A stretch of 64,000 nucleotides of DNA from an uncultured Bacilli bacterium (lineage in GTDB: Bacteria > Bacillota_I > Bacilli_A > RF39 > UBA660). The notes beneath the pieces were generated by a model. The model was not told where the DNA came from. It searched no databases and was given only the letters and a program-made list of their open reading frames with translations. Positions 11,931 through 62,794 of the stretch are shown in pieces. How positions within the stretch are numbered: position 1 is the stretch's first letter; every line of letters starts with the position of its first letter. The position numbers and the translations under genes are program-made. The stretch lies in the NCBI GenBank assembly GCA_947581835.1, contig CANPVV010000001.1, positions 9,685 to 73,684 on the forward strand. The letters are read 5' to 3'.

Positions 11931-11932
11931 TT

Positions 11933-19059: not shown

Positions 19060-19133
19060 ATGTAATATATTAAAAGGCCGTAAAGGGTTGGCCTCTTGCC
19101 CATATATGATATAGCAATATGGGCAAGATTTTT

Positions 19134-21404: not shown

Positions 21405-21773
21405 TTATTTTAAAGAATTAATTTCTTTTAAAGATAAGCCAGTACATTCTGATATGATATCAATAGATATTTGTTTATTTAGCATTTGTTTAGCAATTTC
21501 TAAAGCTTTTTCTTGAGATCCTTTATCTTCAGCAATCTTTTCTGCCCATTTCCCAAATATCTCTTGGGTTTCAAGATCATTTACATACATTTCAAGATTT
21601 TTATCTAATTCCATTAATAATTCATCTCCTTTGGCTGCTTCTGTTCGCTCTTCCGCAGTCTTTGCTCCAATGAACTTTAACCATTGAAACTTTTTGTTAC
21701 CTAAATTGTACTTTATGCTTCTAGCTTTGTCAAGTTTAAAGTTTTTGCTTATAAATTTAAAAGCTCTTACCAA
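21405..21773 (-). pseudogene. Tandem duplicate of the C-terminal third of the adjacent Rpn gene (a gene fragment or a stand-alone small ORF)
   Basis: DNA at 21405-21740 is about 90 % identical by eye to 21800-22158. The ORF starts at TTG with no visible RBS. The product matches residues ~166-283 of the full-length protein, lacking an IEQGIEQG insertion and with a diverged last ~25 aa. Confidence 0.55.
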
Positions 21774-21799
21774 TACTTGATAAGAACTTTTATTTTAAC

Positions 21800-32014: not shown

Positions 32015-33373
32015 TTACATTTTAGTTTTTGGATATATCACTTCTAATTTTTTATTATCATCTATTTTTTTCTTTAAACTTAACACCAGTGGCTTAAATT
32101 TCTCTTCTTCTTCCCCACTAAGTAAAGCACTCTTTTCCCCCTTAATCAAATAAGTTCCATACAAAGTACATAAATCTATATATTGATTATCTTTATATAC
32201 TTGAAAAACCTTTATTCTTTCTTCTTCAGAAAAATCATAATTTTCTAATATCTGTCTAACATATCTTGAGCCCTTAAGTAAAAATCCATATATTTCTTCT
32301 TTACTTAACTTATAACTACAAGTATAAGCCAAAAATAAAATTTTATCCATAACATTTTGATCAAAAAGATTATAATGATCTGAAATATACTGCTTAAATT
32401 TCTGTTTTTCTAATTTAGACTTACCCATCAATATTCTTGTTGTAATATAATTAATATATGATTTATCAAACGCATTAAACAAAACTGGTAAATTATCATA
32501 ATCTAACATTATTTTATCTAAGATCTGATAATTATAAGAACATAAACTATTAGAAACCCAAACTATTAAAGCCTCTTTATTATTAGCATCTTCAATTTTT
32601 TTAGCAATATAATTTAAATCTTCTTTAGTAAAAAAATCATTATTATTTAAATCATTAAATATACTTTGAAGAAACTCTACTATATCACTTTTAGAATTTT
32701 TATTCGCATCATTAAGCCCCATCTCTCTTGACTTAGCAACAACTATATCTGAGATAGCCTCTAAAATATCCTCTTTAGATGCAAATCCTCTGCAATTTGT
32801 TAAAACTTTAATTACCTCATGATTATGATTACTATAATTTAATAAATAAGTTTTAATATCTTCAAAAGAATAATAATCAGTTATATCTGCATTTAAATAA
32901 TCTTGTAAATAATACCAATAATCTTTACTTTCCAAAATTAAATCTATACTCTCAACTTGAAGTAATTTATAAGCAACCGTTGATGCATTAGATGCCATAA
33001 CATAATCTCTTACTAAATCTTTTAAAGCATCTATATTAGAAATATTATTTATAATTTCATTAATAAAAGCCTCATCACCAAAAGAACTTAAATAAGCATC
33101 AATTAAATCTACTCGTCCTTTATCACTCATAGTCTTAAAAAACTTACTTGGCCTAATTAACTCCGCATAAAATTCTCCCGTAGTTTTACTATCATCTAAA
33201 TAATTTAAAAAAGCAAAATTATTATCTCTTTCTTGATATTCATGATCTAAATATTTTCTAATAAATCTCACTGTTTGACTATAAGACTTATTCTCAAAAT
33301 ACCCTTCATGTTTAGCTAAAAAACTATCTACCCCTTCAATTCCTTTAAACTTTAATATTAAACTTGCTATCAT
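32015..33373 (-). CDS. Hypothetical protein (452 aa)
   Basis: Long ORF with coding-like composition and no recognisable motif. Confidence 0.6.
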   Translation of the reverse strand: MIASLILKFKGIEGVDSFLAKHEGYFENKSYSQTVRFIRKYLDHEYQERDNNFAFLNYLDDSKTTGEFYAELIRPSKFFKTMSDKGRVDLIDAYLSSFGDEAFINEIINNISNIDALKDLVRDYVMASNASTVAYKLLQVESIDLILESKDYWYYLQDYLNADITDYYSFEDIKTYLLNYSNHNHEVIKVLTNCRGFASKEDILEAISDIVVAKSREMGLNDANKNSKSDIVEFLQSIFNDLNNNDFFTKEDLNYIAKKIEDANNKEALIVWVSNSLCSYNYQILDKIMLDYDNLPVLFNAFDKSYINYITTRILMGKSKLEKQKFKQYISDHYNLFDQNVMDKILFLAYTCSYKLSKEEIYGFLLKGSRYVRQILENYDFSEEERIKVFQVYKDNQYIDLCTLYGTYLIKGEKSALLSGEEEEKFKPLVLSLKKKIDDNKKLEVIYPKTKM

Positions 33374-36353: not shown

Positions 36354-36449
36354 AACATTTACCTTCGGAATCATTTATCACCCGCGCCATCCGTAAGCGA
36401 GAACATTTACCTTCGGAATCATTTATCACCCGCACCATCCGTAAGCGAG
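36354..36449. repeat. Tandem direct repeat, 2 x 48 bp (47/48 identical), GC-rich relative to its surroundings
   Basis: The unit is AACATTTACCTTCGGAATCATTTATCACCCGC(G/A)CCATCCGTAAGCGAG, at 36354-36401 and 36402-36449. It lies between the metK stop and the dnaB start. Confidence 0.9.
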
Positions 36450-37643: not shown

Positions 37644-37790
37644 AAAAAGAAGAAAAACACCTAAAGATAATCTTTAAGTGTCAAACTATCCTCATCTTTC
37701 GGTTACCATAACCGTAGGATTTAGCACCTAATTAAATAGGTTGCTGGACTTCACTGGGCCTATTCCCTCCATCACTCTTAATAAGGTAAA
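37644..37790 (-). ncRNA. SAM-I (S-box) riboswitch with a terminator, leader of metK
   Basis: The minus strand reads CTTATTAAGAGTGATGGAGGGAATAGGCCCAGTGAAGTCCAGCAACC...GGTGCTAAATCCTACGG...AGATGAGGATAG. This is followed by the hairpin ACACTTAAAGATTATCTTTAGGTGT and a T-run. Confidence 0.9.
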
Positions 37791-39489: not shown

Positions 39490-40761
39490 TTATTTTTTAA
39501 AAGTATATGTATCTGTATAAGTTTTACCTTTTTCTACAACTGATGCCGTAAATTCATAACTATATCCTTTTGTAGGATTAAGAAGTAAACAACCAACTAC
39601 ATTATCAACTTCATTAACAAGCATTTCTTTAGAAGTTTTAAATTTAGGATCATCACTATCTTTAAGATCTATTGTTACTTCATCAAAAACTCCATCTCCC
39701 CCTAAACCTTCAACACATACTAATTGATAAGTTACGCCATCTCCATCTAATGGTTCACTTGTAATTTCTATATCTTCTAATTCTTCTGGATACTTCAAAT
39801 TAAGTGTTAAATACTCTTCTCCAGTAACATTATTTTCTTTATCTACTACTCGCATATAAATATAATATTTACCTTCCTCAAATTCATAAGAAAAATCATA
39901 ATTTATTCCTGTTATATCTTTATCTATTACTTTTAAATATAAATCACTATCTAAATTACTTGTATCTTTTATTTCTTTATCACTTATAATTAAAGTAACT
40001 CTATATTTAGTACTTCCCATAAATATTGATGATATCTTTAAAGTACTATCCCAACCTAAAGTAATATCTTTATCTGTACTCATTTTAAGATTATTATTAG
40101 AAAGTTTATGACTAAGATTAAGTAATCCTGTTGTTTTAAAATCCCATTCAAATTTTTTATCTTTATTTAATTCTTCGGTATTATTAGGCACAACCTCTAT
40201 ATTTTTACTTACCTTTACTTTAAGGGTTGCAACTCCTTCATTATCTGAACTATCTTTAACTTTATAAATAACCTCATATTCCCCTTCTTTTTTATTATCT
40301 ACTTGACTATCTATTAAAATATCTTCAACACTCAAAGTATCATAATTATCTGTTACCTCTTCTATATAATCCTCTGGCTTAAACTCTTCATTAGGTTTTA
40401 TAATCTCTACTAAATTTTTCAAAGTAATTTTCGGAGATTCTCTATCTACTACTTCTACCTTAAATGTTTTATTATACTCTTTTCCATCATATTTTATATT
40501 TAAAGTAATATCTTGTTTCCCTAAAGTATCTACTTCACTAAAACTATAAACAACTTCTTTTTTCTTATAAGTACAACCTTTACTATTACAAGCTATATCT
40601 TGCACCACAAAATCATTAATATTATAATCATTATAATCAACTTTAACTACATTTTTATACTTAAAAGCATCAGTATTCATATTTTTAATTAAAAAATATC
40701 CCCCAATACCAAAACCAATAACCACTACTAAAAAAACTAACCATCCAATAAAATACTTCAT
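39490..40761 (-). CDS. Membrane-anchored protein with an Ig-like (DUF5011-type) repeat; unknown function
   Basis: It has an N-terminal TM segment. The N-terminal ~190 aa are collinear with the N-terminus of the deacetylase at 4402-5829 (EVDT..G, V.D.E.P.IT, G.Y.V.Y.V.DSS.N). Confidence 0.7.
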   Translation of the reverse strand: MKYFIGWLVFLVVVIGFGIGGYFLIKNMNTDAFKYKNVVKVDYNDYNINDFVVQDIACNSKGCTYKKKEVVYSFSEVDTLGKQDITLNIKYDGKEYNKTFKVEVVDRESPKITLKNLVEIIKPNEEFKPEDYIEEVTDNYDTLSVEDILIDSQVDNKKEGEYEVIYKVKDSSDNEGVATLKVKVSKNIEVVPNNTEELNKDKKFEWDFKTTGLLNLSHKLSNNNLKMSTDKDITLGWDSTLKISSIFMGSTKYRVTLIISDKEIKDTSNLDSDLYLKVIDKDITGINYDFSYEFEEGKYYIYMRVVDKENNVTGEEYLTLNLKYPEELEDIEITSEPLDGDGVTYQLVCVEGLGGDGVFDEVTIDLKDSDDPKFKTSKEMLVNEVDNVVGCLLLNPTKGYSYEFTASVVEKGKTYTDTYTFKK

Positions 40762-40809: not shown

Positions 40810-41655
40810 CTATCTTGCCCAAGCAATTTGATTTTTAATATTCTCTAATACTAAAGACATATCACTAAATAATTTCTTAACCTCTATACTTGTCATATCA
40901 CTTTCCATAATACTCATAACGTCATCATATATAAGTGATAATGTATCTACTTCACATAAAGTAAGTCTTGCAAAAATATTAATAATATATATAAGTACTC
41001 TTGCAACAGCATCACTACTACCAAGCTCATTTTCTTCAGTTATACTATACATATCATCTATACTTTCTAATACTAAAATACTTTTATCTATATAGGAATA
41101 TGCTGGTAAATCTCCTGTTCTATAACTATCTGTTTTTAAACTTAAAGAACTATTAAGATTTCCCATAATAAAATCATCTTCTACTTGTGCATTCATAAAT
41201 ATTAAATTATATTTATATAAAACTAAACTTTGTTTTATATCTTTATAATAAGGATTATTTATTAAATAATCTAAAAACTTTAAAATAATATTACTTATAT
41301 CTGTTCTAAGAACACTTGCATAATCTAAATAATCATCTCCACTCATATCATCTAACATATGTAATATCCGGTAATTATAAGCATCAGTTAAATATCCTAA
41401 AGATATAAGTAATTCTTTCTTTGAATATTTATTCTTTAAAACAACTTTTTTAATTTCACTATTAGAATACTCACTACCCATATTAACCAATATTTGTTTT
41501 TCTCTTCCCATTAAATTAATTAGTTCTTGAAAATAATACTCATAATCATTAGTTAACTGTAAATCCCGAGTTTCTAATTCTGAAAGTTTTAAATAAACTT
41601 CCTCAATTTGTTCTTCTATTTCTTTTAAATTTAATAAATAACTTTTTAATTTCAT
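40810..41655 (-). CDS. Hypothetical protein (281 aa)
   Basis: ORF with coding-like composition and no recognisable motif. Confidence 0.6.
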   Translation of the reverse strand: MKLKSYLLNLKEIEEQIEEVYLKLSELETRDLQLTNDYEYYFQELINLMGREKQILVNMGSEYSNSEIKKVVLKNKYSKKELLISLGYLTDAYNYRILHMLDDMSGDDYLDYASVLRTDISNIILKFLDYLINNPYYKDIKQSLVLYKYNLIFMNAQVEDDFIMGNLNSSLSLKTDSYRTGDLPAYSYIDKSILVLESIDDMYSITEENELGSSDAVARVLIYIINIFARLTLCEVDTLSLIYDDVMSIMESDMTSIEVKKLFSDMSLVLENIKNQIAWAR

Positions 41656-41773
41656 AACCTAAACCACCCTCAAAAAAAGTATAGCATAAACAACCATCTA
41701 ATAAAAGTGTTTATTATTAAAAACTAAAAGATAGCCTTAAAAAATAAGACTATCCAATATAAAAATATAAAAA

Positions 41774-41815
41774 CTTGCCTCTAGTTAGAGATAATAGAAA
41801 AGCACTAAAGGCAAG
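41774..41815 (-). terminator. Terminator of paralogue A, inside the 96-bp repeated 3' flank 41726-41821
   Basis: On the minus strand CTTGCCTTTAG...CTAGAGGCAAG is followed by TTTTTATATTTTT. A second hairpin (ATAGTCTTA...TAAGGCTAT) follows. Confidence 0.6.
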
Positions 41816-41821
41816 AAAATA

Positions 41822-43171
41822 TTAATTAAGTTTTACTGTAAATGGGTGTTCTGCAGAACCATCTCCACCTTCTTCAAATGGCGTATCAGCTTTTAAATTT
41901 ATTACAGGACGAACACCAAAAGTGTCAGGCACAAATGTACTGTCGAGATTGCCATTTTTAGTTACACAGTACATCATAGCATAATCATTTACAAAGTAAT
42001 ATGGAGACATAGTCCAATAGGGTTTTCCTGTGAATAAATAATAATCTGCATTTTCTCGAGATTCATATGCTCCTGCATATATCACTTCATCGGCTGTTAT
42101 TAATCCTATTGGATAATCTAAAGCTTGATTTCCAATTCCTTTGTCATTAGTTGTTGTAAATAAATCTTGTTCTTTTTGTGGACATTTAAATATTGGCTTA
42201 TGCGTTATCCATGCTCTTAGATATGGTCCATAATATGTTGTAATTCTTGCATAACCATAGGCACTTGTATCCACTATAGAAGTATTGCTACTTCCATTAT
42301 ATGGTGTTCTATCATTGCAAAAGCCTGTCGCCCCATCTAAAGCGTTTTTATATTGTTCTAAATTTTTTAAATACCAAGTATCTAACTCTTTGAGTATATG
42401 ACTTTTGTTTGTATTTTTATGAGCTTCGTCATATGAACTTGCATTAGCTGTACCATACATAAATCCTACATAGGTATTATCAGTACGAGGATTATTATAA
42501 TAAATTTCTGAGTTGGTAATATCACTTTCACTTATAACATTTTCAGAATAAATTAATCTTATTGTTCCATCACCATTTATTCGGATTATTCGCCACAATT
42601 TATCAGCAAATTTTACCCAATTCTTAATATTGGTTTTACTCCCTCTAAAGTAATAAGTATCTCCATAATCATCTTGACCTTTACAAAGTAAAGCATTAGT
42701 TGTTTCTAAACTATATATTGATGCTTCACCTGTAGCTTCATCTATTGTTGGACAACTATTTCCAGATAATTTTAAATTAGGAAATTTTGCCAACGTATCC
42801 TCTGCTGTGGGTAGTTTTACTTTCTTCAAATAAACAAAACATTTTAATCCACTACTATCTGCTTTTATATATACTTTATTATCCTTATATTCCATTGTTG
42901 TAGTTATATGTTCTGTACTATTTCCTTTTGTACAATAACTTTGTGAATCTACTTCATAATTTCCTTTAGGAATACTATCAGTTTCTTGATAATTTTCTTC
43001 TTCACTATCTTTATAAAGTATAGCAACTCCTTTACTTTCTACTTCTTCTAAATTATTACTACTATCTAACTCAAAAACTTCTTCTCTTTTATTATTTATC
43101 AATTTTATTGATAATATAATTGCAACTAAAAACACCCCTATTACTACTATACTTTTATTACTTTTTTTCAT
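41822..43171 (-). CDS. N-terminally anchored protein with a C-terminal DUF6273-like domain (paralogue A, 449 aa)
   Basis: N-terminal TM anchor MKKSNKSIVVIGVFLVAIILSIKLI. It carries YYFRG, WRIIRINGDGTIRLIY, FCNDRTPY, GLITADEVIYAG, YWTMSP and GVRPVINLKAD. Confidence 0.85.
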   Translation of the reverse strand: MKKSNKSIVVIGVFLVAIILSIKLINNKREEVFELDSSNNLEEVESKGVAILYKDSEEENYQETDSIPKGNYEVDSQSYCTKGNSTEHITTTMEYKDNKVYIKADSSGLKCFVYLKKVKLPTAEDTLAKFPNLKLSGNSCPTIDEATGEASIYSLETTNALLCKGQDDYGDTYYFRGSKTNIKNWVKFADKLWRIIRINGDGTIRLIYSENVISESDITNSEIYYNNPRTDNTYVGFMYGTANASSYDEAHKNTNKSHILKELDTWYLKNLEQYKNALDGATGFCNDRTPYNGSSNTSIVDTSAYGYARITTYYGPYLRAWITHKPIFKCPQKEQDLFTTTNDKGIGNQALDYPIGLITADEVIYAGAYESRENADYYLFTGKPYWTMSPYYFVNDYAMMYCVTKNGNLDSTFVPDTFGVRPVINLKADTPFEEGGDGSAEHPFTVKLN

Positions 43172-43211
43172 TTTTCTTCTCCTATCATAGAAATTCCTAG
43201 TTTATAAATAA

Positions 43212-43240
43212 ATTATAATCTGTGATAGTCTAAAAGTCAA
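43212..43240 (-). promoter_or_regulatory. Near-consensus sigma-A promoter of paralogue A, flanked by a 9-bp inverted repeat
   Basis: On the minus strand the sequence reads TTGACT (43240-43235), a 17-nt spacer, then TATAAT (43217-43212). The -10 is part of the palindrome ATTATAAT (43212-43219), which also reads TATAAT on the plus strand. The inverted-repeat arms are CTATCATAG (43182-43190) and CTGTGATAG (43220-43228). Confidence 0.6.
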
Positions 43241-43313
43241 GTAAAAGTTCGGCATTTAGAGCATATAATTTTCTTAAAACTAAATAAATGAGACAATACT
43301 TCTGGTGAAATAT

Positions 43314-43772
43314 ATGAATTATGGAGAAAAAATGAAACAAATAAGAGAAACAAATAATGTTTCTCAAGAACAAATTGCTAACATATTAAATATAAAAAGA
43401 TCTACTTATGGTCATTATGAAACAGAATACCAAACTATTCCTATAAACCATTTAATAAACTTTTGTAAATATTTTAAAATATCAATTGATTATCTTTTTA
43501 ATTTTACTGAAAATCAAACTTCCACAAATTATCAAGACATTAATAATGAAAAAGCTAGCATTCGTCTAAAAGAATTTCGAAAAGAAAATGACTTAACCCA
43601 AAAAGCTTTAGGCATAGACCTAAATACTACTAAAACTGTTATAAGTGGCTATGAACATGGAAGATATTTGATTGCTACTCCATTTCTTTATACTATCTGT
43701 AAAAAATACAACTATTCTGCTGACTATCTCTTAGGTTTAACTGATAAACCTAAATATATCAAACTAAAATAA
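43314..43772 (+). CDS. XRE-family regulator with two HTH domains
   Basis: It has two Cro/C1-type HTH modules (KQIRETNNVSQEQIANILNIKRSTYGHYE and LKEFRKENDLTQKALGIDLNTTKTVISGYE). The preferred start is ATG 43314, preceded by GGTGA. The ORF track starts at GTG 43305. Confidence 0.85.
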   Translation: MNYGEKMKQIRETNNVSQEQIANILNIKRSTYGHYETEYQTIPINHLINFCKYFKISIDYLFNFTENQTSTNYQDINNEKASIRLKEFRKENDLTQKALGIDLNTTKTVISGYEHGRYLIATPFLYTICKKYNYSADYLLGLTDKPKYIKLK

Positions 43773-43774
43773 AA

Positions 43775-44293
43775 TTAATTAACTATAACTGAATCTTTTT
43801 CTATTTTCTCTATTAAACTATCAATTGCATCTTTAGGTATTCTAGTTGATGAATTATTTTTTAAAAGATTACACGCTTTAACTGCTATATCACTTGCAAT
43901 AATCTTATTTTCATACATTAATTCAACTATCCTCAAAGTTCTTATAACCTCTATTCCATGCTTTTCTGAATATACCTTTAAATCATTATCTCCTGTAGCC
44001 AAAATACAATCATTATCTCTAGCAATTATATAATTTAGTGCATCATATATAGATAACCTTGGCTTTTCTAATCTAACTGAATTTATCTCTAATAATTGTT
44101 TTTCTGTTGCTTCAATTACTTTAAACTTATCAATAACTTTTATATCTCCAGTATCAGAATTAATTTCATCATACTTTAATAAATCACTTATAAATACATT
44201 ATCTAATTCTACAAATTGTGCTAAAATTTTAGCATTATTTAAATCTGTAATTATATTAGTATCCGTAATTATTATTTTCGCTGTTATATTCAT
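43775..44293 (-). CDS. PIN-domain (DUF4411-like) putative nuclease
   Basis: Acidic residues lie in PIN-like positions (IIITDTN..., ...IYDALNYIIA..., ...LATGDNDL). The product is 172 aa. The gene overlaps the upstream HTH-ImmA gene by 38 nt. Confidence 0.65.
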   Translation of the reverse strand: MNITAKIIITDTNIITDLNNAKILAQFVELDNVFISDLLKYDEINSDTGDIKVIDKFKVIEATEKQLLEINSVRLEKPRLSIYDALNYIIARDNDCILATGDNDLKVYSEKHGIEVIRTLRIVELMYENKIIASDIAVKACNLLKNNSSTRIPKDAIDSLIEKIEKDSVIVN

Positions 44294-45305
44294 TTGCTGT
44301 TACTCCTAAAAATTCACAAGCTTTATTAAGTGATATAATATTATCTATCTCTAATTTATGCACAATTCTTTTAAATTGATAAGTTTCTTCTGGAACTATT
44401 AATATTGGTTCCTCTTTTTTACCAAATATTTTATTCAAACTAATATTTAAATTTCTATAAGTATATTCAGTTATTATATTTAAATCCTTCAATCTATAAA
44501 TTGTAGCTGCCATACTAACTTTATATTCTCTTTTAAAAGCCATAAGTTCATATAAACTAATATTATTTCTTGAAACCCCAAATTCATTTATTACTGCATC
44601 TTTTGGCATTAACAAACTACTAGCAAATCTATTACATAATTTTTCTTCATCTAAATCATCATTACTAAAATTTAATATTAAATGTCCAAGTTCATGAGCA
44701 ATCGTAAATCTTTGTCTAGCACCATCACTAATCCCATCTAATAAAACAATAACTGGTATATTATTAACAAATTCACTTAACCCATCAAAATCATTAAACA
44801 TACCATTTTGATTATTTATTTTAATTATAATTATACCTAAATTTTCTAAAGTATTAATTAAATCTGATATAGGTAATAACATTGAATATTTTATATCATT
44901 TCTAAACTTTTCTGCTGCAAGCTCTGCTTCCTCTAAATTACTACAATTATATCTTTTAATTCTTTTATTATTACTAAAATTATTCATTTCCATAACTTCT
45001 AAATACTTTGCTACTTCATTTTGAATAACTTCTTTTAATAACTCTAAATTTTGTCCTTTAAGTCTCTTTCTTTTTCTAAAAGAAGTAAACTTCATATTGG
45101 GAACTTGATATGATTTTAAAAGTTCAATAACTTTTACATTATAAGCATTAGCAAATTCTATTAACTTTTTAGAATTAGGATTAATCTCCCCTTTTTCATA
45201 TTTAGCTACTGCTGGAGCTGACATATTTAATAATAATCCAACATCTTTTAAAGACAAATTTTTTAAAAGTCTAATTCTTCTCAAATTATTTCCAATTTCA
45301 TTCAT
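44256..45305 (-). CDS. Fusion of an XRE HTH domain and an ImmA/IrrE (COG2856, M78) zinc metallopeptidase
   Basis: N-terminal HTH (LRRIRLLKNLSLKDVGLLLNMSAPAVAKYEKGE) plus the HEXXH motif HELGHLIL. Confidence 0.85.
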   Translation of the reverse strand: MNEIGNNLRRIRLLKNLSLKDVGLLLNMSAPAVAKYEKGEINPNSKKLIEFANAYNVKVIELLKSYQVPNMKFTSFRKRKRLKGQNLELLKEVIQNEVAKYLEVMEMNNFSNNKRIKRYNCSNLEEAELAAEKFRNDIKYSMLLPISDLINTLENLGIIIIKINNQNGMFNDFDGLSEFVNNIPVIVLLDGISDGARQRFTIAHELGHLILNFSNDDLDEEKLCNRFASSLLMPKDAVINEFGVSRNNISLYELMAFKREYKVSMAATIYRLKDLNIITEYTYRNLNISLNKIFGKKEEPILIVPEETYQFKRIVHKLEIDNIISLNKACEFLGVTANEYNSENNNYGY

Positions 45306-45332
45306 AATTATTACTCCTTTTATTTAGTTAAT

Positions 45333-45361
45333 ATTTTAACATAAAATTTTAGAAATGTAAA
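45333..45361 (-). promoter_or_regulatory. Sigma-A-type promoter of the HTH-ImmA/PIN operon
   Basis: On the minus strand the sequence reads TTTACA (45361-45356), a 17-nt spacer ending in TGT, then TAAAAT (45338-45333). Confidence 0.45.
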
Positions 45362-45411
45362 CCAAAAAAGATAGCCTTAAATCTAAGACTATCCAATATA
45401 AAAATATAAAA

Positions 45412-45453
45412 CTTGCCTCTAGTTAGAGATAATAGAAAAGCACTAAAGGCAAG
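45412..45453 (-). terminator. Terminator of paralogue B, inside the repeated 3' flank 45366-45459
   Basis: The same hairpin and T-run are found at 41774-41815. Confidence 0.6.
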
Positions 45454-45459
45454 ATAATA

Positions 45460-46875
45460 TTAATCTAGTTTTACTGTAAATGGTTTAGAAGAAGTACCAT
45501 CTCCACCTTCTTCAAATGTAACATTAGCTTTTAAATTTATTACCGGACGGACACCACGAGTATCATTAACATAACCATGTTCAAGCCAACCTTCATCACT
45601 TATATAAGAAACATAAGCATGACCATTATAACAATTTGGAGTCATAGCCCAATAATTATAAGCATTGTACAAATAATAAGCATAATTGTCTGTGCCATAT
45701 ATGCCTCCAGCAAACATTATTTCATCAGCTGTGATTAACCCTACAGGAATAGGTAACTTTTCATTTCCTCTTTTACTTCCAAAAATAGTATATAAATCTT
45801 GTTCTTTTTGTGGACACTTAAATGTTGCTTTTTTACTATGCATCACTCGTATATTTCCTTCATAATAAGTGGTCCCATTACTTTCAACATTACCATAACC
45901 CTTATTTACTCTATCTGGAATTCCTCCTGTAGATTCTGCATATGGTGTCCTATCTCCGCAAAATCCTGTATTTCCATCAAGATATTTTCTTACAATTTCA
46001 GATAAAAATTTAGAGTTAGTATACCAATAATTTATTTTTTCTAAAATATCACTGTTCGTTAAATTAGCATGAGTTGCTTTATAAGCAGCATCATCATCAG
46101 TAATTTTTATTTGACCTGGTATCCCATACATATAACCTACATATGCATTATCATCATAATTTAAATTATATGCAACATTTTCATTATTTCCACTACCTGA
46201 ATCGTAAAATAGCATTGTATCCTTACCAACTTTATTTGTTGTATTTCCATTATATATTAATCTTATAGAACCATTCCCATTTATCCTGATTATTCGCCAA
46301 TAGATATTATCTATTAATACCCAGTTATTTGGTGCTTGACCTCTAAAATAGTAAGTTTCGCCATCATCATCAACGCCTCTACATAATAATGTATTAGGTT
46401 CAATACTTCTGGTTTTTATAGATGCATATCCATTTTCATCAAAAATAGGACATTTACTACTATCATCACTTACAACTAAACCTGATAATTTTGCTAAAGT
46501 ATCTTCTGCTGTTGGTTCTTTTATTTTCTTTAAATAAACAAAACATTTTAATCCACTACTATCTGCTTTTATATATACTTTATTATCTCTATATTCCATT
46601 GTAGTTTGTATATGTTCTTTACTTTCTCCCTTTGTACAATAACTATCTTCTGTTACTTCATAATTTCCAACAGGAACATTATCTGTATCTTTATATTCCT
46701 CATTATCACTATCTTTATAAAGTATAGCAACTCTTTTACCCTCTACCTCTTTTAAATTATTACTACTATCTAACTCATATACTTCTTCTCTTTTATTATT
46801 TATCAATCTTATTGATAATAAAATTGCAACTAAAAACACCCCTATTACTACTATACTTTTATTACTTTTTTTCAT
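45460..46875 (-). CDS. N-terminally anchored protein with a C-terminal DUF6273-like domain (paralogue B, 471 aa)
   Basis: The first ~130 aa are about 80 % identical by eye to paralogue A. The C-terminal part is much more diverged but keeps YYFRG, WRIIRINGNGSIRLIY, FCGDRTPY, GLITADEIMFAGG, YWAMTP and GVRPVINLKAN. Confidence 0.85.
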   Translation of the reverse strand: MKKSNKSIVVIGVFLVAILLSIRLINNKREEVYELDSSNNLKEVEGKRVAILYKDSDNEEYKDTDNVPVGNYEVTEDSYCTKGESKEHIQTTMEYRDNKVYIKADSSGLKCFVYLKKIKEPTAEDTLAKLSGLVVSDDSSKCPIFDENGYASIKTRSIEPNTLLCRGVDDDGETYYFRGQAPNNWVLIDNIYWRIIRINGNGSIRLIYNGNTTNKVGKDTMLFYDSGSGNNENVAYNLNYDDNAYVGYMYGIPGQIKITDDDAAYKATHANLTNSDILEKINYWYTNSKFLSEIVRKYLDGNTGFCGDRTPYAESTGGIPDRVNKGYGNVESNGTTYYEGNIRVMHSKKATFKCPQKEQDLYTIFGSKRGNEKLPIPVGLITADEIMFAGGIYGTDNYAYYLYNAYNYWAMTPNCYNGHAYVSYISDEGWLEHGYVNDTRGVRPVINLKANVTFEEGGDGTSSKPFTVKLD

Positions 46876-46917
46876 TTTCCTATTCTCCTATCATAGAAAT
46901 TCCTAGTTTATAAATAA

Positions 46918-46946
46918 ATTATAATCTGTGATAGTGTAAATGTCAA
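46918..46946 (-). promoter_or_regulatory. Consensus sigma-A promoter of paralogue B with the same inverted repeat
   Basis: On the minus strand the sequence reads TTGACA (46946-46941), a 17-nt spacer, then TATAAT (46923-46918). The inverted-repeat arms are at 46888-46896 and 46926-46934. Confidence 0.6.
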
Positions 46947-47018
46947 GAAAAATCTTCCAATAACAGTCAAAATATTTTTTCAATTATTTTAAGTGAGAAA
47001 ATAGACATGGTGAAATAT

Positions 47019-47486
47019 ATGAATTATGGTGAAAAACTAAAAGAATTAAGAGAATATAATAATATAAATAGACGAGTTAGTCAAAAAGAAGTTGCTGAAG
47101 CAATAGGTATCAAAAGAAGTTCATATAATCAATTTGAACAACAATATGATATTATTCCTATTAAAAGATTAAATCAAATTGCCAATTTTTTTAATGTTTC
47201 TATTGATTATATTTTTGATTTAACTAAAGAATTAAACTATTCAAAAGTTAACTATAATATAGATTTAGAAAAATCTAGTCAAAGGTTAAAAGAATTTCGC
47301 AAAAATAATAAACTAACTCAAATAGAACTAGCAAAAATATTAAAAGTTTCTCCTTCTGTAATAATTCATCATGAAACCAAAAGAAATCCTTTAGGTACCC
47401 CTTTTCTTTATGAGTTATGTTTTAAATATAATATCTCTGCTGATTATTTATTAGGAAGAATTGATTATCCTAAAAATTTTAAGTGA
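47019..47486 (+). CDS. XRE-family regulator with two HTH domains
   Basis: Paralogue of the gene at 43314-43772. The preferred ATG is 47019, after GGTGA. TGA stop. Confidence 0.8.
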   Translation: MNYGEKLKELREYNNINRRVSQKEVAEAIGIKRSSYNQFEQQYDIIPIKRLNQIANFFNVSIDYIFDLTKELNYSKVNYNIDLEKSSQRLKEFRKNNKLTQIELAKILKVSPSVIIHHETKRNPLGTPFLYELCFKYNISADYLLGRIDYPKNFK

Positions 47487-47503
47487 TAGATTTGGTGAAA
47501 TAT

Positions 47504-47971
47504 ATGAACTATGAAAGTAATCTAAAAAAATTAAGAGAAATAAATAATCTAACTCAAGAAGAACTTGCCGAAATTCTAAATATTAATAGAACAACCTATA
47601 ATCATTATGAAAATAACTATGTAACCATACCAATTAAACACTTAATAAAAATAAGTGAATACTTTAAAATCTCAATAAACTACTTATTAGGTTTTACCAA
47701 TGATTTAGATAAATCTACCATAACCAATAAAACAAATTTAAATATTTTTAAAGAAAGACTAAAAGAATTTAGAAAAACAGAAAATTTAAAACAAGAAAAT
47801 CTTGCTCAAATACTAAACACCACTCAAGGAGTTATAGCTAACTATGAACGAGGCAGAAACTATATTGCCACTCCCTTTTTATTTGATTTATGTAAAAAAT
47901 ACAATTATTCTGCTGACTATCTCTTAGGTTTAACTGATAAGCCTAAATATATCAAAATAAAAGAAAACTAA
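47504..47971 (+). CDS. XRE-family regulator with two HTH domains
   Basis: A paralogue of the gene at 43314-43772. A 66-nt stretch near its 3' end (47891-47956) matches 43698-43763 with 2 mismatches. The preferred ATG is 47504, after GGTGA. Confidence 0.8.
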   Translation: MNYESNLKKLREINNLTQEELAEILNINRTTYNHYENNYVTIPIKHLIKISEYFKISINYLLGFTNDLDKSTITNKTNLNIFKERLKEFRKTENLKQENLAQILNTTQGVIANYERGRNYIATPFLFDLCKKYNYSADYLLGLTDKPKYIKIKEN

Positions 47972-47982
47972 TTATTTAATTA

Positions 47983-48027
47983 AAAAATACTAGCTTTAAC
48001 TTCTTAACTTTTCTAGTATTTTTTTAT
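47983..48027. terminator. Bidirectional terminator (rpoC / HTH genes)
   Basis: The AAAAATACTAG ... CTAGTATTTTT stem is flanked by A/T runs. Confidence 0.6.
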
Positions 48028-48045
48028 ATAAAAAGAAGAAAACAA

Positions 48046-51000
48046 TTATTCTTCGTTTTCTTCTTCTAAATTCTCATCATCAGTTAAATCATCAAATGTT
48101 ATTGGAGCATTTTCTTCAATAGTCTCTTCTTCTTTTTCTTGTGTATCTATTGTTTGTTCTTCGCTATTACCTTCTTGATTATTTTCTGTATTTTCAATTG
48201 GTGCTCCATTTTCATCTAACAATTTATCTTCTAAAAATTCAGCGGCATCATTATCCATAAATTCTTTCTCAAGATAAATATCAATATCGCTATATTCTTT
48301 AGCTCCTGTACCTGCTGGAATAAGTTTTCCAATAATAACATTTTCTTTTAATCCTCGCAAGTAATCAACTCTACCTTTAATTGCTGCATCTGTTAATACT
48401 CTAGTTGTCTCTTGGAATGATGCAGCAGATAAATAACTATCAGTCTCTAAAGATGATTTAGTAATACCAAGCATTATAGGTCTACCAGTCGCTGGTATTC
48501 CCCCTCTTAATATTACTGGTTTATTACCTTCTGTAAAATCATGCATTGAAACAGTAAGGCCCTCTACAAAATCTGAATCTCCAGCATCAACAATTCTAAC
48601 TTTATTAATCATTCTCTTAACAATAATTTCTACGTGTTTATCGTTAATATCAACACCTTGTAATTTATATACTGATTGAATTTCTTTTAAGATATATTCT
48701 TCAGCAGTAAGTGGGTCAGTAACCGCTAGTAATTCTTTAGGTGCAATTGAACCTTCTGTTAATTTTTCACCAGCTACTACAGTATCCCCAACTTCAACTC
48801 TAAGTTTAGTATTATAGTTAGTTATGTGTTCTCTAACACCAGCTTCATTTTCAACTACAACTTTATGTTTTCCACCTTGATCTTCAATATGAATAACTTT
48901 ACCATTAATTTCTGATATAGTTGCTTTATATTTAGGAGTTCTAGCCTCAAATAACTCTTCAACTCTTGGAAGACCTTGAGTAATATCGTCTCCTCCCGCA
49001 ACACCACCAGTATGGAATGTTCTCATGGTAAGCTGAGTACCAGGTTCTCCAATAGATTGAGCTGCCATAATTCCGACTGCTTCTCCAGTTTCAACTAAAT
49101 TACCAGTCGCAAGATTTCTTCCATAACATTTTTGGCAAACTCCATTTTGAGTCTTACAAGTAAGTACACTTCTAATTTCAACCTTTTTAACTCCGGCTTT
49201 AATAATCTTAGCGGCGATATTTTCTGTTATTAATTCATCTTTATCTACAATCATTTCTTTAGTTTCTGGATTAATAACTTTTTTCGCTGTATATCTACCT
49301 AAAATTCTTTCACTAAGTGATTCAATTACGGAACCATCTTTATCATTAACTAAATCATATACTTCTACACCTGAGATTGTACCACAATCAAATTCTTTAA
49401 CAATTATATCTTGGGCAACATCTACTAAACGACGTGTTAAATAACCTGAATCGGCTGTTCTTAACGCTGTATCAGCTGAACCTTTTCTTGAACCATGAGT
49501 TGATAAGAAGAACTCTGATACATCTAATCCTTCAATAAAACATGAAGTAATTGGAATTTCAACTGTTGAACCATCTGGCTTAGCCATTAATCCACGCATA
49601 CCTGCAAGTTGGGTAAAATTCGAAATAGAACCACGCGCATTAGAATTCATCATCATAAATATTGGATTATCAAAATCATTTGCTGATATTTCTTGAAGTT
49701 CTTTCTTAACTTCATCATTAGCTTCTGTCCAAATCTGAATAACACTATTATAACGCTCTTCCTCAGTTATTAAACCTCTCTTAAATTGTTTATTAACCTT
49801 TTCAACTTTTTCTTGAGCATTCTTAATAATTTCACCCTTTTTACTACTTCTAACTATATCTGATACAGAAACTGTAATACCCGCAACCGTTGAATATTTA
49901 AATCCTAAATCTTTCAATTTATCAAGCATTATAGATGTTTCTGTAGTTTTATATCTCTTAAATACTTGAGCAATAATCCATTCTAAAGTTTTCTTAACAA
50001 ATGGTTTTGATAATTCCATACCCTTTATTACTTCTGGAATATTCTCTCCCATCGAAATAAAAAACTTATTAGGTGTAATCCCTTCAATATTTTCTTTAGT
50101 TCCTTCATTAACATATGGAAAACTATCTGGCAATATTTCATTAAATATAATCTTACCTACAGTTGTAACTAAATACTTATCTTGTTGTTCTTCAGTAAAT
50201 AATTTATATTTAAAAGATCTAACAGGAATAGCAATTCTTGTATGTAAAGTAACTTCTCTTCTCTCATATGCCATTAAAGCTTCATTTGTATTCTTAAATA
50301 CTTTACCCTCATTTTCTTCATTAGCTTTTTCAATTGTTAAATAACAATTTCCTAAAACCATATCTTGTGAAGGTGTAACAATAGGTTTACCATCTTTAGG
50401 ATTTAAAATATTACTTGCTGAAAGCATTAATATTCTAGCTTCCGCTTTAGCTTCTTCTGAAAGAGGTATATGAACTGCCATTTGATCTCCATCAAAATCC
50501 GCATTAAAACCTGTACAAACTAAAGGATGCAATCTTATCGCTTTACCACCAACTAATTTTGGTTCAAAAGCTTGAATACCTAATCTATGTAATGTTGGTG
50601 CTCTATTAAGTAATACAGGATGCTCAGTAATAACATCTTCTACAATATCCCAAACACATTCATCTCTTGTATCAATTAACTTTTTAGCTCCCTTAATATT
50701 ATGAGCAAGACCTCTTTCTACTAAACCATGAATAACATGAGGTTTAAATAACTCTAAAGCCATCTCTTTAGGAAGTCCACATTGATACATTTTTAAATTA
50801 GGTCCAACAACTATAACAGAACGTCCAGAATAATCAACTCTTTTACCTAATAAATTTTGACGAAAACGTCCTTGTTTACCTTTAAGCATACTAGATAAAC
50901 TCTTTAAAGGTCTATTTCCTGCCGCAGTTATAGAACGTCCTCTTCTTCCATTATCAAATAAAGAATCAACTGCTTCTTGAAGCATTCTCTTTTCATTTTG

Positions 51001-57211: not shown

Positions 57212-60200
57212 CTATTTACAACCATTATTAACATATGTAGTATAAGTATCTAAATATAAACCAATTCTTTCTTCACAATGATATGCCGCTGGATTTTCAA
57301 ATTGAACACAAAATTGATAAGCCATATCTCTTGGTGAATGATTCTCTAACATATATTTATAAATTTCTTTATAAGTTTTAAATTCATCATAAAATCTTTG
57401 GGTTTGCATCTTTAAATCTCCAATTGAAACTTTATTTGCCTTCGCAAAATCATATAAAGCTTGTTTTCTTGACGAATAAGTCCACTGAATAAGACCATAT
57501 CCTGCTGAATCATGTACAAAACTATGCTCAGAATAAGTCCCATCATCTACTGCTTTAGTATAACTACTATCACTATAACCTAACTTATTTTCATATTTAC
57601 CTTCCAAATTTATTGGATTAAAACTACTTTCGGCTTGAATATTTACCATCATACCAATTACAGCATTTTTAGAAAAACCACTTGCAAGCATGGTATTACA
57701 TACATAATTTTTAGCATCACTTGCATTTCCCTGAGCCATAAAAGTTCCATCAACTCCAATTGGTCTTGGATTATCTGGCGAAACATAATCTAAAGGATCA
57801 ACTTTTGTTCCATTAACTCTTACCTCAAAATGTAAATGTGGTCCTGATGTATTACCCGTATTATCTGAATATGCAATAATCTGTCCTGTTACAACACTAT
57901 CTCCAACTTTTACTAATGGTTCAAGTAAATGACCATATCTCGTCTCATAACCATCACCATGATCTATAAAAACATAATTTCCTAAACGGCCTCCACAAGC
58001 ACTATCTCCTTCTTTACACCCACTGTTTACTTGAGTTACTGTTCCATTTCTAGCAGCAATAATAGGTGTACCTGTTGCAGTTCCAATATCTATTGCCCCA
58101 TGATTAGTTGATGCTCCTGGTACTGGTGCACTTCTTGGCCCAAAAGTTGATGTTACTCTAACTGAAACAGGAGTTCCCCCATAAATATTTCCTTCACTTG
58201 GATTTGCACTTCCAATCGGCCACCACCAAGCATTATAACCTGCTAAAGTATAATAAGTACAATAATCACTTAAATTATATAAACTAAGTTTTGAACTATT
58301 ACTTTTATTAACTCTTGAACTTATAATGCTAAATATATTTTTATAATCTTGATTACCATAATGAATACCTTCACTATCATAATTACTTATCGCAGTCTCT
58401 GTAAAATTTAAATTAATATACTTTAAATTTTTTATTCCCCCATTATTTATTAAAGCACCCAATTCTTTATTAAAATTATTTATTCCTTCATTATCTACAT
58501 AAACTGCTTTACTATCTAAAACTGGTCCTACCGAAACAACATAAATATTATGATTACGCCACTCATTACTTGCTAAACTAGCATATCTACTATAATAAGT
58601 ATCAGCATTATAAGTTGTATAATCATTTACTCCTAACCAAATAACTATATTATAATTACCACTTCCCATTAAACTATTAAGACCATTTATTCCCCCACTT
58701 GTCGCATTTGTTTTACTACTATCAAAGCTTCCTCTTCCCACTAACCAATCATAACCATAACCAACTCCATAAATTGTATGACTATTATTAATAACTCCAC
58801 TATTAAGTATTCCAAGCATTCTTGAATCACCTAAATAAAAAGTTTCTCTTTTATCTATACTTGTATCTTCATCTACTTTACTATTTTTAAATAAACCATC
58901 CAAAATACTTTCATAATTTTTAGTTTTAGCATCTTCTTCCATCCTACTTAAAATGGAATCTGAAAAATCTAAGGCATTATCCATACTTAAAGATGCAATT
59001 TCACTTTGATATGATTCTGCTACATAAATATAATTACTTATATCCGAATATAAATTATTTAATTTACTTATATATGAACTATCTGCCACTCCTAAAGTAG
59101 AACAACCAACCTCAGGATTACAATAAGAAACTTCTCCTGCACAGCCATCAAGTTCTATATTTTTAGAACTACTATTATAATTACCATAACTTAAAGCATT
59201 AGTCTTTATTAAAATCATAAGTGCTTTTAATGCTTCATCACTATAAGTTGCCCCTTTAGTATAATAATATGTAGAACCAATAACAAACTCTTGCAAAGTA
59301 AGTTTACTCTGATTTCCATCACAAGTATCAATATTTACAGCCGTTTCATTATAATTACAAGCATTATCAAAATAACCATTAAACGCGAAAGGATCTTTCT
59401 TTCGAGAAGAATTAATAATTATTATTAGAAAAAGAAGTAAAACAAAAATCCCCAACAATAAAGCTCCAATAATAAGCATCTTTTTAAGATTACTCTTTCC
59501 TAGTATTTCTTCTACTAGTCCACTACTTAAATTATCGCTTTTGCCTTCTTGACTTTCTGTACCTCCAGGGTTTTCTACAGTGTTATTATCTAAACCTGGA
59601 TTAACGCTTTCACTATCCAAAGAGGTTTCTACTTCATTAGTATCTATATCGTTACTACCTTCTACTTGGTTATCTAAAGTATTCTCTTCTTCCGCAATTT
59701 CACTTTCATTATTAAAAATATTTCTAATATTCCCTCGAAAACCATTTTTTGGAGTATTTTCTTTAGGACTTGCCTCGCCCTGATTACTTCGCCATCTATT
59801 AATTTTATTATGAGTACTACCTAAATTATCTAATTCATTACTATTATTTTCTTCATCACTTGAATTATTAGATTTATCTCCAACTTCCATTTCTCCATCT
59901 ATACTATTATCTTTATTACTATCTCCAACATTATAATCATTATAATTATTATTATTTTCTTCTTCTCTTCTATTTTCTGTTTTATCATTGGTGTTTAAAT
60001 TTTCTTGTTTATTTTCTCTTTCTTTTCTAACATTTCCACTCTCATTGGTAATATCTTCTATTTTATTACTAGAAGAATTTAAATTTGGTCTAAATCTTCT
60101 TCCAATTTGCTCACCCTTATTTAAAGTTTTATCAACCTTTTCTTTTGCATCATCATAATTTTTTGGAGTATCATCTGAAACTAAAGATTTTTCTTTTACT

Positions 60201-60337
60201 TCTTCATCCTTATTTAAAATATCATTAATTCTTTTTCTATTATTACGATTTTGATTATTATTAAAGTTTAAATTGGGGCGATTAGGATTATACCTATAAG
60301 CATCTAAATTCTCTTTATGATTATCATTATCGTTCAT
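57212..60337 (-). CDS. Multidomain cell-wall hydrolase: disordered N-terminus, TM, SpoIID/LytB-like (tentative), SGNH/GDSL-like, M23 peptidase and lysozyme-like (phage-tail-lysozyme-type) domains
   Basis: The order along the protein is as follows.
- An N/E/D-rich region of about 290 aa, then a TM segment (MLIIGALLLGIFVLLLFLIIII).
- EALKALMILIKTNALSYG, which is SpoIID-like.
- FYLGDSRMLGI / IWLGVNDY / EGIHY, which are SGNH blocks.
- HGAIDIG...GHL...GPHLHFEV, which is M23.
- The C-terminal VNIQAESSFNP...GYGLIQWT, which is lysozyme-like. Confidence 0.8.
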   Translation of the reverse strand: MNDNDNHKENLDAYRYNPNRPNLNFNNNQNRNNRKRINDILNKDEEVKEKSLVSDDTPKNYDDAKEKVDKTLNKGEQIGRRFRPNLNSSSNKIEDITNESGNVRKERENKQENLNTNDKTENRREEENNNNYNDYNVGDSNKDNSIDGEMEVGDKSNNSSDEENNSNELDNLGSTHNKINRWRSNQGEASPKENTPKNGFRGNIRNIFNNESEIAEEENTLDNQVEGSNDIDTNEVETSLDSESVNPGLDNNTVENPGGTESQEGKSDNLSSGLVEEILGKSNLKKMLIIGALLLGIFVLLLFLIIIINSSRKKDPFAFNGYFDNACNYNETAVNIDTCDGNQSKLTLQEFVIGSTYYYTKGATYSDEALKALMILIKTNALSYGNYNSSSKNIELDGCAGEVSYCNPEVGCSTLGVADSSYISKLNNLYSDISNYIYVAESYQSEIASLSMDNALDFSDSILSRMEEDAKTKNYESILDGLFKNSKVDEDTSIDKRETFYLGDSRMLGILNSGVINNSHTIYGVGYGYDWLVGRGSFDSSKTNATSGGINGLNSLMGSGNYNIVIWLGVNDYTTYNADTYYSRYASLASNEWRNHNIYVVSVGPVLDSKAVYVDNEGINNFNKELGALINNGGIKNLKYINLNFTETAISNYDSEGIHYGNQDYKNIFSIISSRVNKSNSSKLSLYNLSDYCTYYTLAGYNAWWWPIGSANPSEGNIYGGTPVSVRVTSTFGPRSAPVPGASTNHGAIDIGTATGTPIIAARNGTVTQVNSGCKEGDSACGGRLGNYVFIDHGDGYETRYGHLLEPLVKVGDSVVTGQIIAYSDNTGNTSGPHLHFEVRVNGTKVDPLDYVSPDNPRPIGVDGTFMAQGNASDAKNYVCNTMLASGFSKNAVIGMMVNIQAESSFNPINLEGKYENKLGYSDSSYTKAVDDGTYSEHSFVHDSAGYGLIQWTYSSRKQALYDFAKANKVSIGDLKMQTQRFYDEFKTYKEIYKYMLENHSPRDMAYQFCVQFENPAAYHCEERIGLYLDTYTTYVNNGCK

Positions 60338-62717: not shown

Positions 62718-62794
62718 GGCGATGTAGCTCAGCTGGCTAGAGCGACCGGTTCATACCCGGTAGGTCGGGGGTTCGATCCCCTCCGTCGCTACCA
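62718..62794 (+). tRNA. tRNA with anticodon CAU (elongator Met type; Ile2 via lysidine is not excluded)
   Basis: A hand-folded cloverleaf fits:
- acceptor GGCGATG/CGTCGCT
- D arm GCTC-AGCTGGCTA-GAGC
- anticodon arm ACCGG-TTCATAC-CCGGT
- T arm GGGGG-TTCGATC-CCCTC
- an encoded CCA end
There is no 1:72 mismatch and no GGG/CCC anticodon stem, so it is not an initiator tRNA. Confidence 0.9.

Follow-up and report, generated by a model that had tools for sequence, protein, structure and literature searches.

A 64,000-nucleotide stretch of contig CANPVV010000001.1, from an uncultured Bacilli bacterium of the RF39 lineage (this whole stretch is referred to below as the window), carries beside rpoC a 6.3-kb block with two copies of one gene cassette, at 41.7-43.8 kb and 45.4-48.0 kb, and a diverged third copy lies at 19.1-21.4 kb. 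Each cassette is composed of a minus-strand gene for a large, anchored protein and of one or more divergently transcribed genes for regulators of the XRE type (Table 1). The large proteins are remote relatives of the DUF6273 family, as supported by predicted structure, and the two copies represent old paralogues whose ends have been kept alike around diverging heads, presumably by recombination. The cassettes may be understood as a repressor-controlled, recombining repertoire of surface binding proteins, a reading whose chances we put at about even.

The layout had been proposed in an earlier note on this DNA, made from the sequence alone, and every gene named there is present in the list of open reading frames (ORFs), including a pair of overlapping genes between the two copies, one for a helix-turn-helix (HTH) and Peptidase_M78 protein and one for a PIN-like protein. 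The third copy is also there, with a large protein 35% identical to large protein 1, and it is likewise paired with an XRE gene, of the single-HTH type.

Large proteins and their relationship to DUF6273

As to the nature of the large proteins, DUF6273 (PF19789) is the only Pfam family seen in them, with scores of 20.6 and 22.3 bits versus a gathering cut-off of 23.5, and no Pfam match to DUF6273 is found for the third paralogue. The landmarks of the family are present in the large proteins (WRxxRxNGDG..., ...ADE..., YWxxSP, and GVRPVINL), the family is recognized at E <= 0.01 in 37 of 73 aligned relatives, and it is recognized above the cut-off in the homologues P0014 (32.4 bits) and P0134 (49.1 bits). 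The AlphaFold model of large protein 1, based on the alignment of 73 sequences (pLDDT 89, pTM 0.82), includes a helix (residues 7-26), a beta-sandwich (residues 48-117), and a globular domain (residues ~125-449), this head domain being approximately twice the length of the DUF6273 model. When compared by Foldseek with the predicted viral structures of BFVD, the protein retrieves several phage proteins annotated as DUF6273 domain-containing, with probabilities of 0.96-1.00, E values of 2e-6 to 1e-3, and TM-scores of up to 0.57 on the target, some of these being annotated as tail fibre or receptor-binding proteins. Both the DUF6273-like pattern and the N-terminal anchor claimed in the earlier note are borne out by these data. 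A profile search of PDB sequences with the large protein gave no match, and NCBIfam contains no family for any of the large proteins; the view that these are not housekeeping genes also stands, as no housekeeping family emerged from the profile searches (Pfam, NCBIfam, PDB sequences).

According to the literature, the DUF6273 domain is C-type-lectin-like and constitutes, in the phage "tentaclins", the hypervariable part that binds the receptor (PMC10743442), and it also makes up the N-terminal domain of the gut immunoglobulin A protease ThomasA (PMC12402451). The large proteins share with these the sequence landmarks, similar predicted structures, and a presumed extracellular setting, whereas, unlike the tentaclins and the targets of diversity-generating retroelements (DGRs), they are cellular and membrane-anchored, and are accompanied by a dedicated regulator and by conserved non-coding flanks.

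Two cysteine pairs, C80/C111 in the stalk and C285/C330 in the head, are nearly invariant over the 73 members, and in some relatives the head domain is fused to Listeria-Bacteroides and InlB B-repeats. Giant relatives from other metagenomes (P0121, P0122, and P0124, of 2,500-4,900 amino acids, aa) possess 8-16 repeats of the head domain. Because of the cysteine pairs, the up to 16 head repeats, and the B-repeat fusions, the head is probably an extracytoplasmic binding module.

Regulators, promoters, and the 3' hairpin

Each of the three regulators of the duplicated cassettes contains two HTH domains, as had been suggested earlier, recognized by Pfam as two stretches of the HTH_3 type (HTH_3/HTH_19; E = 1e-19 to 7e-27), and the AlphaFold model of regulator A (pLDDT 93, pTM 0.87) is compact, with the two HTH domains in a fixed arrangement. 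Individually, each HTH matches the structures of P22 c2, C.BclI, C.AhdI, ImmR, and SinR with a probability of 1.0, and no solved chain covers both domains (TM-score on query <=0.42). Conservation is much higher in the second HTH than in the first (mean top-residue frequency of 0.81 versus 0.64) and reaches 0.92 over the last two helices of the second. Regulator C is nearest to regulator A, with 62% aa identity overall and 85% over the last 27 codons. The double-HTH regulators form a large unnamed family of their own, with at least 1,516 members at E <= 1e-10, in which no characterized member was found. Two XRE HTH domains are likewise present in Wmk (PMC12504857). Compared to the Cro/C1 repressors and the C proteins of restriction-modification systems, the cassette regulators are alike in being small, in being divergent from the presumed target, and in being accompanied by promoter palindromes, but they differ in that a single chain of 150 aa contains two fused HTH domains, oriented in a fixed way to one another.

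The linkage between the two kinds of genes extends well beyond the window. In the best 80 cassette loci from species-representative genomes (~0.8 Mb), the ORFs of which were searched with the family and XRE profiles, 42 of the 66 near-complete family genes with enough upstream sequence have a divergent XRE gene within 500 bp (26 of double-HTH size and 16 of single-HTH size), and one locus, L080, contains three tandem cassettes. The pairing, assumed to be strict in the earlier note, is strong as a linkage but is not strict, and the regulator is not always a double-HTH one.

The promoters of large genes 1 and 2, near-consensus and facing the regulator genes as the earlier note had them, are the top two sites in the region, and both are directed into the large genes. 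The -10 box in both is flanked by a 10-nt inverted repeat, CTATCATAGA / TCTGTGATAG, the span of which also includes, in the early leader, a near-palindrome, CTAGGAATTTCTAT (43187-43200 in cassette 1), and the motif CTATCAYAG occurs five times in the window versus 0.77 times expected, with four of the occurrences at the two promoters. Among cassette intergenic regions from other genomes, 35 of 42 possess a promoter with no more than one mismatch per hexamer, and many are of the form TTTTTCTTGAC-N17-TATAAT followed by TATAAGTTAGAAATTTCTAAT, the latter containing a perfect 14-bp palindrome, TTAGAAATTTCTAA. Promoter regions are more alike within a genome than between genomes (0.72 versus 0.62 ungapped identity). 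A promoter this close to consensus should work without an activator, and palindromes cover both its -10 box and the start region; the simplest role for the XRE protein is therefore that of a repressor, most likely acting on the promoter of the adjacent large gene. On the side of the regulator genes, a leader element, (A/G)TGAGAAAATTAnnnTGGTGA, is found 5' of 21 of the 34 double-HTH XRE genes and reads in 13 of those 21 as a 6-codon mini-ORF, MRKLxW*, with a stop codon that runs into the ribosome-binding site; weaker copies are present at 46992-47003 and 47483-47503. Alternatively, this element could be an extended -10 promoter element.

Downstream of the large genes, a pair of hairpins forms on folding of either 3' flank (z-scores, -6.6 and -6.0), in agreement with the twin structures noted earlier. 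The hairpin positioned directly 3' of the stop codon has a conserved outer stem, CUUGCC/GGCAAG, a variable inner stem, and a loop that starts with UGCU. Over 25 distinct instances, which were preselected for end complementarity, 96.4% of the cells are paired and changes on both sides are seen in 9 of 11 pairs, with 46 compensatory cells versus 12.3 +/- 3.0 in shuffles, and with slid controls pairing in no more than 45% of cells. A covariance model of the hairpin (R1) finds exactly three sites in the window, one after each family gene, and 37 sense-strand sites in the 0.8 Mb of cassette loci, 35 of which are within 80 nt past a family stop codon; in 1.2 Mb of control loci centred on rpoC it finds a single site, again immediately behind a family gene. 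Overall, 39 of 41 sense-strand matches are thus in this position. The hairpin scores higher on the sense than on the antisense strand and tolerates G.U pairs on the former, two observations in favour of a role at the RNA level. Rfam provides no match for the hairpin, either at the gathering threshold in the window or at E <= 1 in 41600-48050. The covarying hairpin, present after many family genes in other genomes as well, is to be regarded as a previously undescribed RNA element. Pairing of its loop with the ribosome-binding region of its own gene was considered and rejected, the mean duplex energy being -7.6 kcal/mol versus -7.3 kcal/mol for the starts of other genes.

Table 1. Coordinates of the cassette genes and of the associated regulatory features, in positions of the window.
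Feature	Position	Strand	Description	Basis
Large gene 1	41822-43171	-	449 aa; helix, immunoglobulin (Ig)-like stalk, DUF6273-like globular head	ORF list, Pfam, AlphaFold, Foldseek BFVD
Large gene 2	45460-46875	-	471 aa; architecture as large protein 1	ORF list, Pfam
XRE regulator A	43314-43772	+	two Cro/C1 HTH domains; listed ORF begins at GTG 43305	Pfam HTH_3 x2, AlphaFold
XRE regulator B	47019-47486 (listed ORF from 47007)	+	two HTH domains	Pfam
XRE regulator C	47504-47971 (listed ORF from 47483)	+	two HTH domains	Pfam
HTH + ImmA/IrrE (M78) protein, RmrA-like antitoxin/regulator	44256-45305	-	349 aa	Pfam, PADLOC
PIN-like protein, putative toxin of RosmerTA-like pair	43775-44293	-	172 aa; overlaps the gene at 44256-45305	ORF list, Pfam
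Third paralogue	19134-21008	-	624 aa from ATG 21008; extra N-terminal region of ~200 aa	ORF list
Single-HTH XRE gene divergent from third paralogue	21139-21372	+		Pfam HTH_3, E = 1e-11
Promoter of large gene 1	43240 to 43212	-	TTGACT-17-TATAAT, 11/12 consensus matches	
Promoter of large gene 2	46946 to 46918	-	TTGACA-17-TATAAT, 12/12 consensus matches	
Inverted repeat and leader palindrome, candidate operators, cassette 1	43182-43228	.	repeat brackets -10 box	
Same inverted repeat and leader palindrome, cassette 2	46888-46934	.		
Leader element / 6-codon mini-ORF MRQYFW*	43288-43308	+	stop overlaps GGTGA ribosome-binding site of XRE regulator A gene	
Family-specific hairpin of the 3' untranslated region (3'-UTR), cassette 1	41774-41815	-	CUUGCC...loop UGCU...GGCAAG	model R1, 42.8 bits, E = 9e-10
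Family-specific 3'-UTR hairpin, cassette 2	45412-45453	-		model R1, 42.8 bits
Family-specific 3'-UTR hairpin, third cassette	19095-19127	-		model R1, 42.9 bits
Intrinsic terminator, cassette 1 (second hairpin of 3' flank)	41755-41729	-	11-bp stem, then T run	
Intrinsic terminator, cassette 2	45394-45369	-		terminator scan, folding

Mosaic paralogues, their genomic position, and their distribution

Large proteins 1 and 2 are 54% identical overall, and the identity is distributed unevenly. Between the two copies, BLASTN aligns 41726-41918 with 45366-45556 at 88.8% and 42783-43349 with 46487-47054 at 85.5%, and a 66-nt stretch at the 3' ends of the genes for regulators A and C differs at two positions, while the middles of the large genes are ~60% identical in nucleotides and 46% in amino acids, with only short BLASTN patches. 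The near-identity at the DNA level claimed in the earlier note was somewhat overstated for the promoter and the first codons. Synonymous divergence (dS) between copies 1 and 2 amounts to 0.23 over codons 1-130, 0.82 over codons 131-415, and 0.31 over codons 416-449 (with the ends at 0.13-0.31 across comparisons), and the ratio of nonsynonymous to synonymous divergence (dN/dS) in the head is ~0.6-0.7. A fourth paralogue, P0008, reveals the same pattern, its successive segments being 93-96%, 77-79%, 45-48%, and 74-76% identical in amino acids to the window copies, and its leader and 3' hairpin also matching theirs. It is the low dS at both ends combined with the high dS in the middle, repeated in P0008, that identifies the copies as old paralogues; of the recent duplication proposed earlier, only the ends are young, or homogenized, and the middles are old. 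The proposal that the system is diversifying fares well, with the head varying and both ends remaining constant.

As to the mechanism of variation, two known ones were considered and rejected. Against diversification by a retroelement, the Pfam-scanned window ORFs include no reverse transcriptase match, and the 18-49 kb region, in which the repeats reflect cassette paralogy only, lacks a template/variable repeat pair. Against phase variation, the promoters contain neither homopolymer nor short-repeat tracts, and the block shows no invertible segment and no flanking inverted repeats that are credible. The multigene families of variable surface proteins in Mollicutes include Vlp, Vsa, and Vsp. 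The cassettes resemble these in the large number of paralogues carried by each genome, the genomes being those of AT-rich, host-associated relatives of Bacilli, in the conserved 5' end (promoter, leader, anchor) followed by a variable remainder, and in the evidence for recombination between copies. They differ in that their anchors have no lipobox cysteine (the first 79 residues of the large proteins contain no cysteine at all), their promoters have no repeat tracts, no invertible segment is seen, and each cassette gene is served by a promoter, and in most cases by an XRE regulator, of its own.

The position of the block was surveyed in 80 loci centred on close rpoC homologues (1.2 Mb). In three of these (L084, L086, and L087) rpoC is directly followed by a homologue of the 281-aa gene that flanks the block in the window, the 6.3-kb block being missing, and in L090-L092 and L140 it is directly followed by the gene for an Ig-like protein. 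With rpoC thus directly adjoining these homologues in the closest relatives in which the flanking gene is conserved, the block is specific to the lineage of the window. In L086 and L090-L092, an XRE plus large-gene cassette lies instead between glyQS and the dnaB-like gene. The accessory status of the block, suggested earlier, agrees with this comparison of the glyQS-rpoC interval, and the site after rpoC behaves as a variable hotspot. The cargo right after rpoC differs in L085, L088, L089, L093, and L130, with small unrelated genes, an 861-aa ORF, or a family gene in this position. A pattern scan for relatives of the 281-aa flanking protein found none.

A probable insert at the variable site is the gene pair wedged between the two window copies. 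Its 349-aa protein contains the HTH_3 and Peptidase_M78 domains of Pfam, is matched over its full length by 14 RmrA models of PADLOC (best E = 2.6e-39), and resembles the spr1629 family of NCBIfam below the cut-off. The 172-aa protein is matched by the Pfam PIN family at E = 0.0014, below the cut-off, and by no RmrT or other PADLOC model, and an identical gene in L082 displays a weak match to DUF3368; the identical ImmA/PIN arrangement is found in one other metagenome contig. The RosmerTA systems, in which RmrA is the HTH-ImmA antitoxin and its toxin partners are numerous and unrelated, can protect against phages (PMC10440598). The pair in the window is alike in that an HTH and ImmA-type zinc peptidase protein overlaps a small second gene, and unlike in that the PIN-like partner matches no RmrT of PADLOC, RmrT toxins being reported as diverse (PMC10440598). 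We read this pair as a putative toxin-antitoxin or defence module of the RosmerTA-like kind, independent of the cassettes. A role of ImmA as an anti-repressor of the cassettes was considered and rejected, as ImmA and PIN homologues are absent from the 80 other cassette loci.

The family of the large proteins is extensive. A word-indexed search recovered about 5,000 relatives, none of them named, and an exhaustive profile search recovered 10,714 cluster representatives at E <= 1e-3, of which 3,711 at E <= 1e-30. Among species-representative genomes, the family is concentrated in gut metagenome-assembled genomes (MAGs) labelled as uncultured Bacilli, Tenericutes, or Mycoplasma, from rabbit, human, mouse, and chicken, and among the best 80 loci one MAG accounts for 13 and others for 6-9. 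Exact-sequence look-ups of the 471-aa protein and of P0004, P0005, and P0009 gave no match. The family is essentially cellular: a tblastn search of 50,697 phage records with the large protein gave no match, and IMG/VR (2.9 million viral contigs) contains three loci only, so a phage origin of the large proteins was rejected.

Competing readings of the cassettes

In the reading of a repressor-controlled repertoire of surface binding proteins, an uncleaved helix at the N-terminus would anchor the large protein in the membrane, with the DUF6273-type head shown on an Ig-like stalk, and the head would most likely bind an extracellular ligand, such as a glycan or a protein of the host, of other microbes, or of the cell's own envelope. 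The near-perfect sigma-70-type promoter would drive the large gene, and the XRE protein, usually with its two fused HTH domains acting as a compact pseudo-dimer, would repress it, making each cassette an on/off unit, while the 3'-UTR hairpin followed by the terminator probably acts on the mRNA, for example on its stability or processing. Within a genome, recombination would keep the promoter, leader, anchor, stalk, and 3' end alike, and the heads would diverge, resulting in varied binding specificities. A more specific proposal, which we consider unlikely, would be a new type of surface-variation system in which paralogous two-domain repressors, connected in a network, select the head to be displayed, in place of DNA inversion, slippage, or a retroelement, and in which the conserved second HTH reads a family-wide leader palindrome, the variable first HTH reads cassette-specific sites, and the 3' hairpin adds a shared post-transcriptional layer.

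A number of observations weigh against the reading of a regulated surface repertoire. The DUF6273 matches of the window proteins are below the cut-off and span the last third of the model only, and Foldseek finds nothing for the large protein among solved structures at E <= 0.001, the top relevant folds, none of them significant, being the C-terminal domain of Legionella Lcl (8q4e, probability 0.41) and the CD23 lectin (0.06). Approximately one-third of the family genes have no detectable adjacent XRE gene. The recognition helix of the regulator does not track the -35/-10 spacer of its own cassette, as cassettes with the same spacer carry unrelated helices, and the simple picture of each regulator recognizing its own promoter spacer is not supported by this sequence comparison. 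The preselection of the hairpin instances is a concern as well, one that is mostly removed by the covariance-model scan, which is an independent check. Finally, a cell wall is apparent, the window encoding a D-Ala-D-Ala carboxypeptidase and M23/peptidoglycan-binding proteins, and for this reason a 450-aa anchored protein may not reach the outer surface.

Of the alternatives, a rather improbable one is that the globular domain works on extracellular polymers (for example glycans, or muropeptides for an auxotroph), either as an enzyme or in nutrient capture, with the XRE protein being substrate-linked and the diversity of the heads reflecting a substrate range. The wider C-type-lectin-like fold does include enzymes, such as the formylglycine-generating enzyme, and seven polar residues are invariant over the 73 members (R197, N199, R205, D287, N348, E362, and R421). 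RF39 and two related uncultured orders are also predicted to possess incomplete de novo peptidoglycan synthesis and to scavenge muropeptides (PMC10868615). However, no enzyme family matches the large proteins in Pfam, NCBIfam, or PDB sequences, the XRE proteins possess no sensor domain detectable by Pfam or AlphaFold, and a variable head between constant ends resembles diversification, not substrate specialization.

Improbable to a similar degree is phage exclusion by receptor masking, in which the head would bind the polymers of its own envelope, or the incoming phage, and block adsorption, with the XRE protein as the switch and the RosmerTA-like module as the mark of a defence island. The presence of that module between the copies and the varying cargo downstream of rpoC are consistent with such a role, as is the fact that the closest structural relatives of the head are phage DUF6273 proteins, some of them annotated as tail fibre or receptor-binding proteins (PMC10743442). 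On the other hand, the large proteins have no PADLOC match, their relatives are nearly missing from the phage records and viral contigs, the RosmerTA-like genes are unlinked to the cassettes in the 80 other loci, and the 13 or more loci per genome, along with the giant multi-repeat versions, fit adhesins better. The exclusion system suggested in the earlier note is left with no direct support.

It is very unlikely that the hairpin with the CTTGCC/GGCAAG ends is a DNA recombination site, of the attC or transposon-end kind, that mobilizes the cassettes, instead of an RNA element. Like the hairpin, attC sites do combine conservation of the outer ends with variation of the inner stem, cassettes occupy different intergenic sites in related genomes, and a nuclease/transposase-like gene of the Rpn family adjoins the third cassette; but neither an integrase nor an HUH transposase is matched in any Pfam-scanned window ORF, the hairpin is present at one end of the cassette only, and it is always on the sense strand, between the stop codon and the terminator, tolerating G.U pairs there. 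The more specific version of an integron cassette was rejected, given the lack of an integrase match among the Pfam-scanned window ORFs and given that the CTTGCC/GGCAAG ends differ from the GTTRRRY cores of attC. Least probable is that the cassettes are decayed remnants of prophages or mobile elements, in which a lysogeny-type repressor and a receptor-binding gene were duplicated by chance and have no joint function, since, although the HTH domains look like phage repressors (in structures and in PHROG matches) and the head like DUF6273 proteins of phages, many genomes contain the same two-gene unit, complete with its conserved consensus promoter, leader, and 3' hairpin, the large proteins possess a membrane anchor and not tail-fibre modules, the Pfam-scanned window ORFs include no integrase, reverse transcriptase, or phage structural gene, and the family is nearly absent from viral collections.

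Some other features of the window deserve mention. The Rpn-family gene (recombination-promoting nuclease/putative transposase) at 21405-22651 (-) is accompanied by a truncated duplicate, the two having in common 238-nt repeats that are 91% identical. Two further membrane-anchored proteins with a "bacterial surface Ig-like" domain are encoded at 39490-40761 (-), in the conserved rpoC-glyQS neighbourhood, and at 4402-5829 (-), the latter also with a polysaccharide deacetylase domain, and a 1041-aa protein with Peptidase_M23 and phage-tail-lysozyme domains is encoded beside housekeeping genes at 57212-60337 (-). At E <= 1e-5, Pfam recognizes nothing in the large ORFs at 12202-15390 (-; 1062 aa) and 32015-33373 (-; 452 aa). 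In the spacer that separates metK from the dnaB-like gene, a 48-nt sequence is repeated in tandem, the two copies being 98% identical (36354-36449). The Rfam scan identified a SAM riboswitch upstream of metK (37689-37787, -), a T-box leader upstream of a class I tRNA synthetase gene (11768-11958, -), and one tRNA gene (62718-62791, +).

Overall, known parts (DUF6273-type domains, variable surface families, Cro/C1 repressors) appear here joined in a cassette with conserved non-coding ends, of which no description was found in the literature, and the cassette includes a 150-aa two-domain regulator with no solved counterpart and an RNA hairpin outside Rfam. With more than 10,000 sequence clusters, this is a major unstudied family, and its hosts are abundant gut Bacilli that have never been cultured. 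The cassettes could serve as strain-level markers in metagenomes and as a compact, testable unit for heterologous assays, and the family likely shapes the contact of these bacteria with the host, with other microbes, or with phages.

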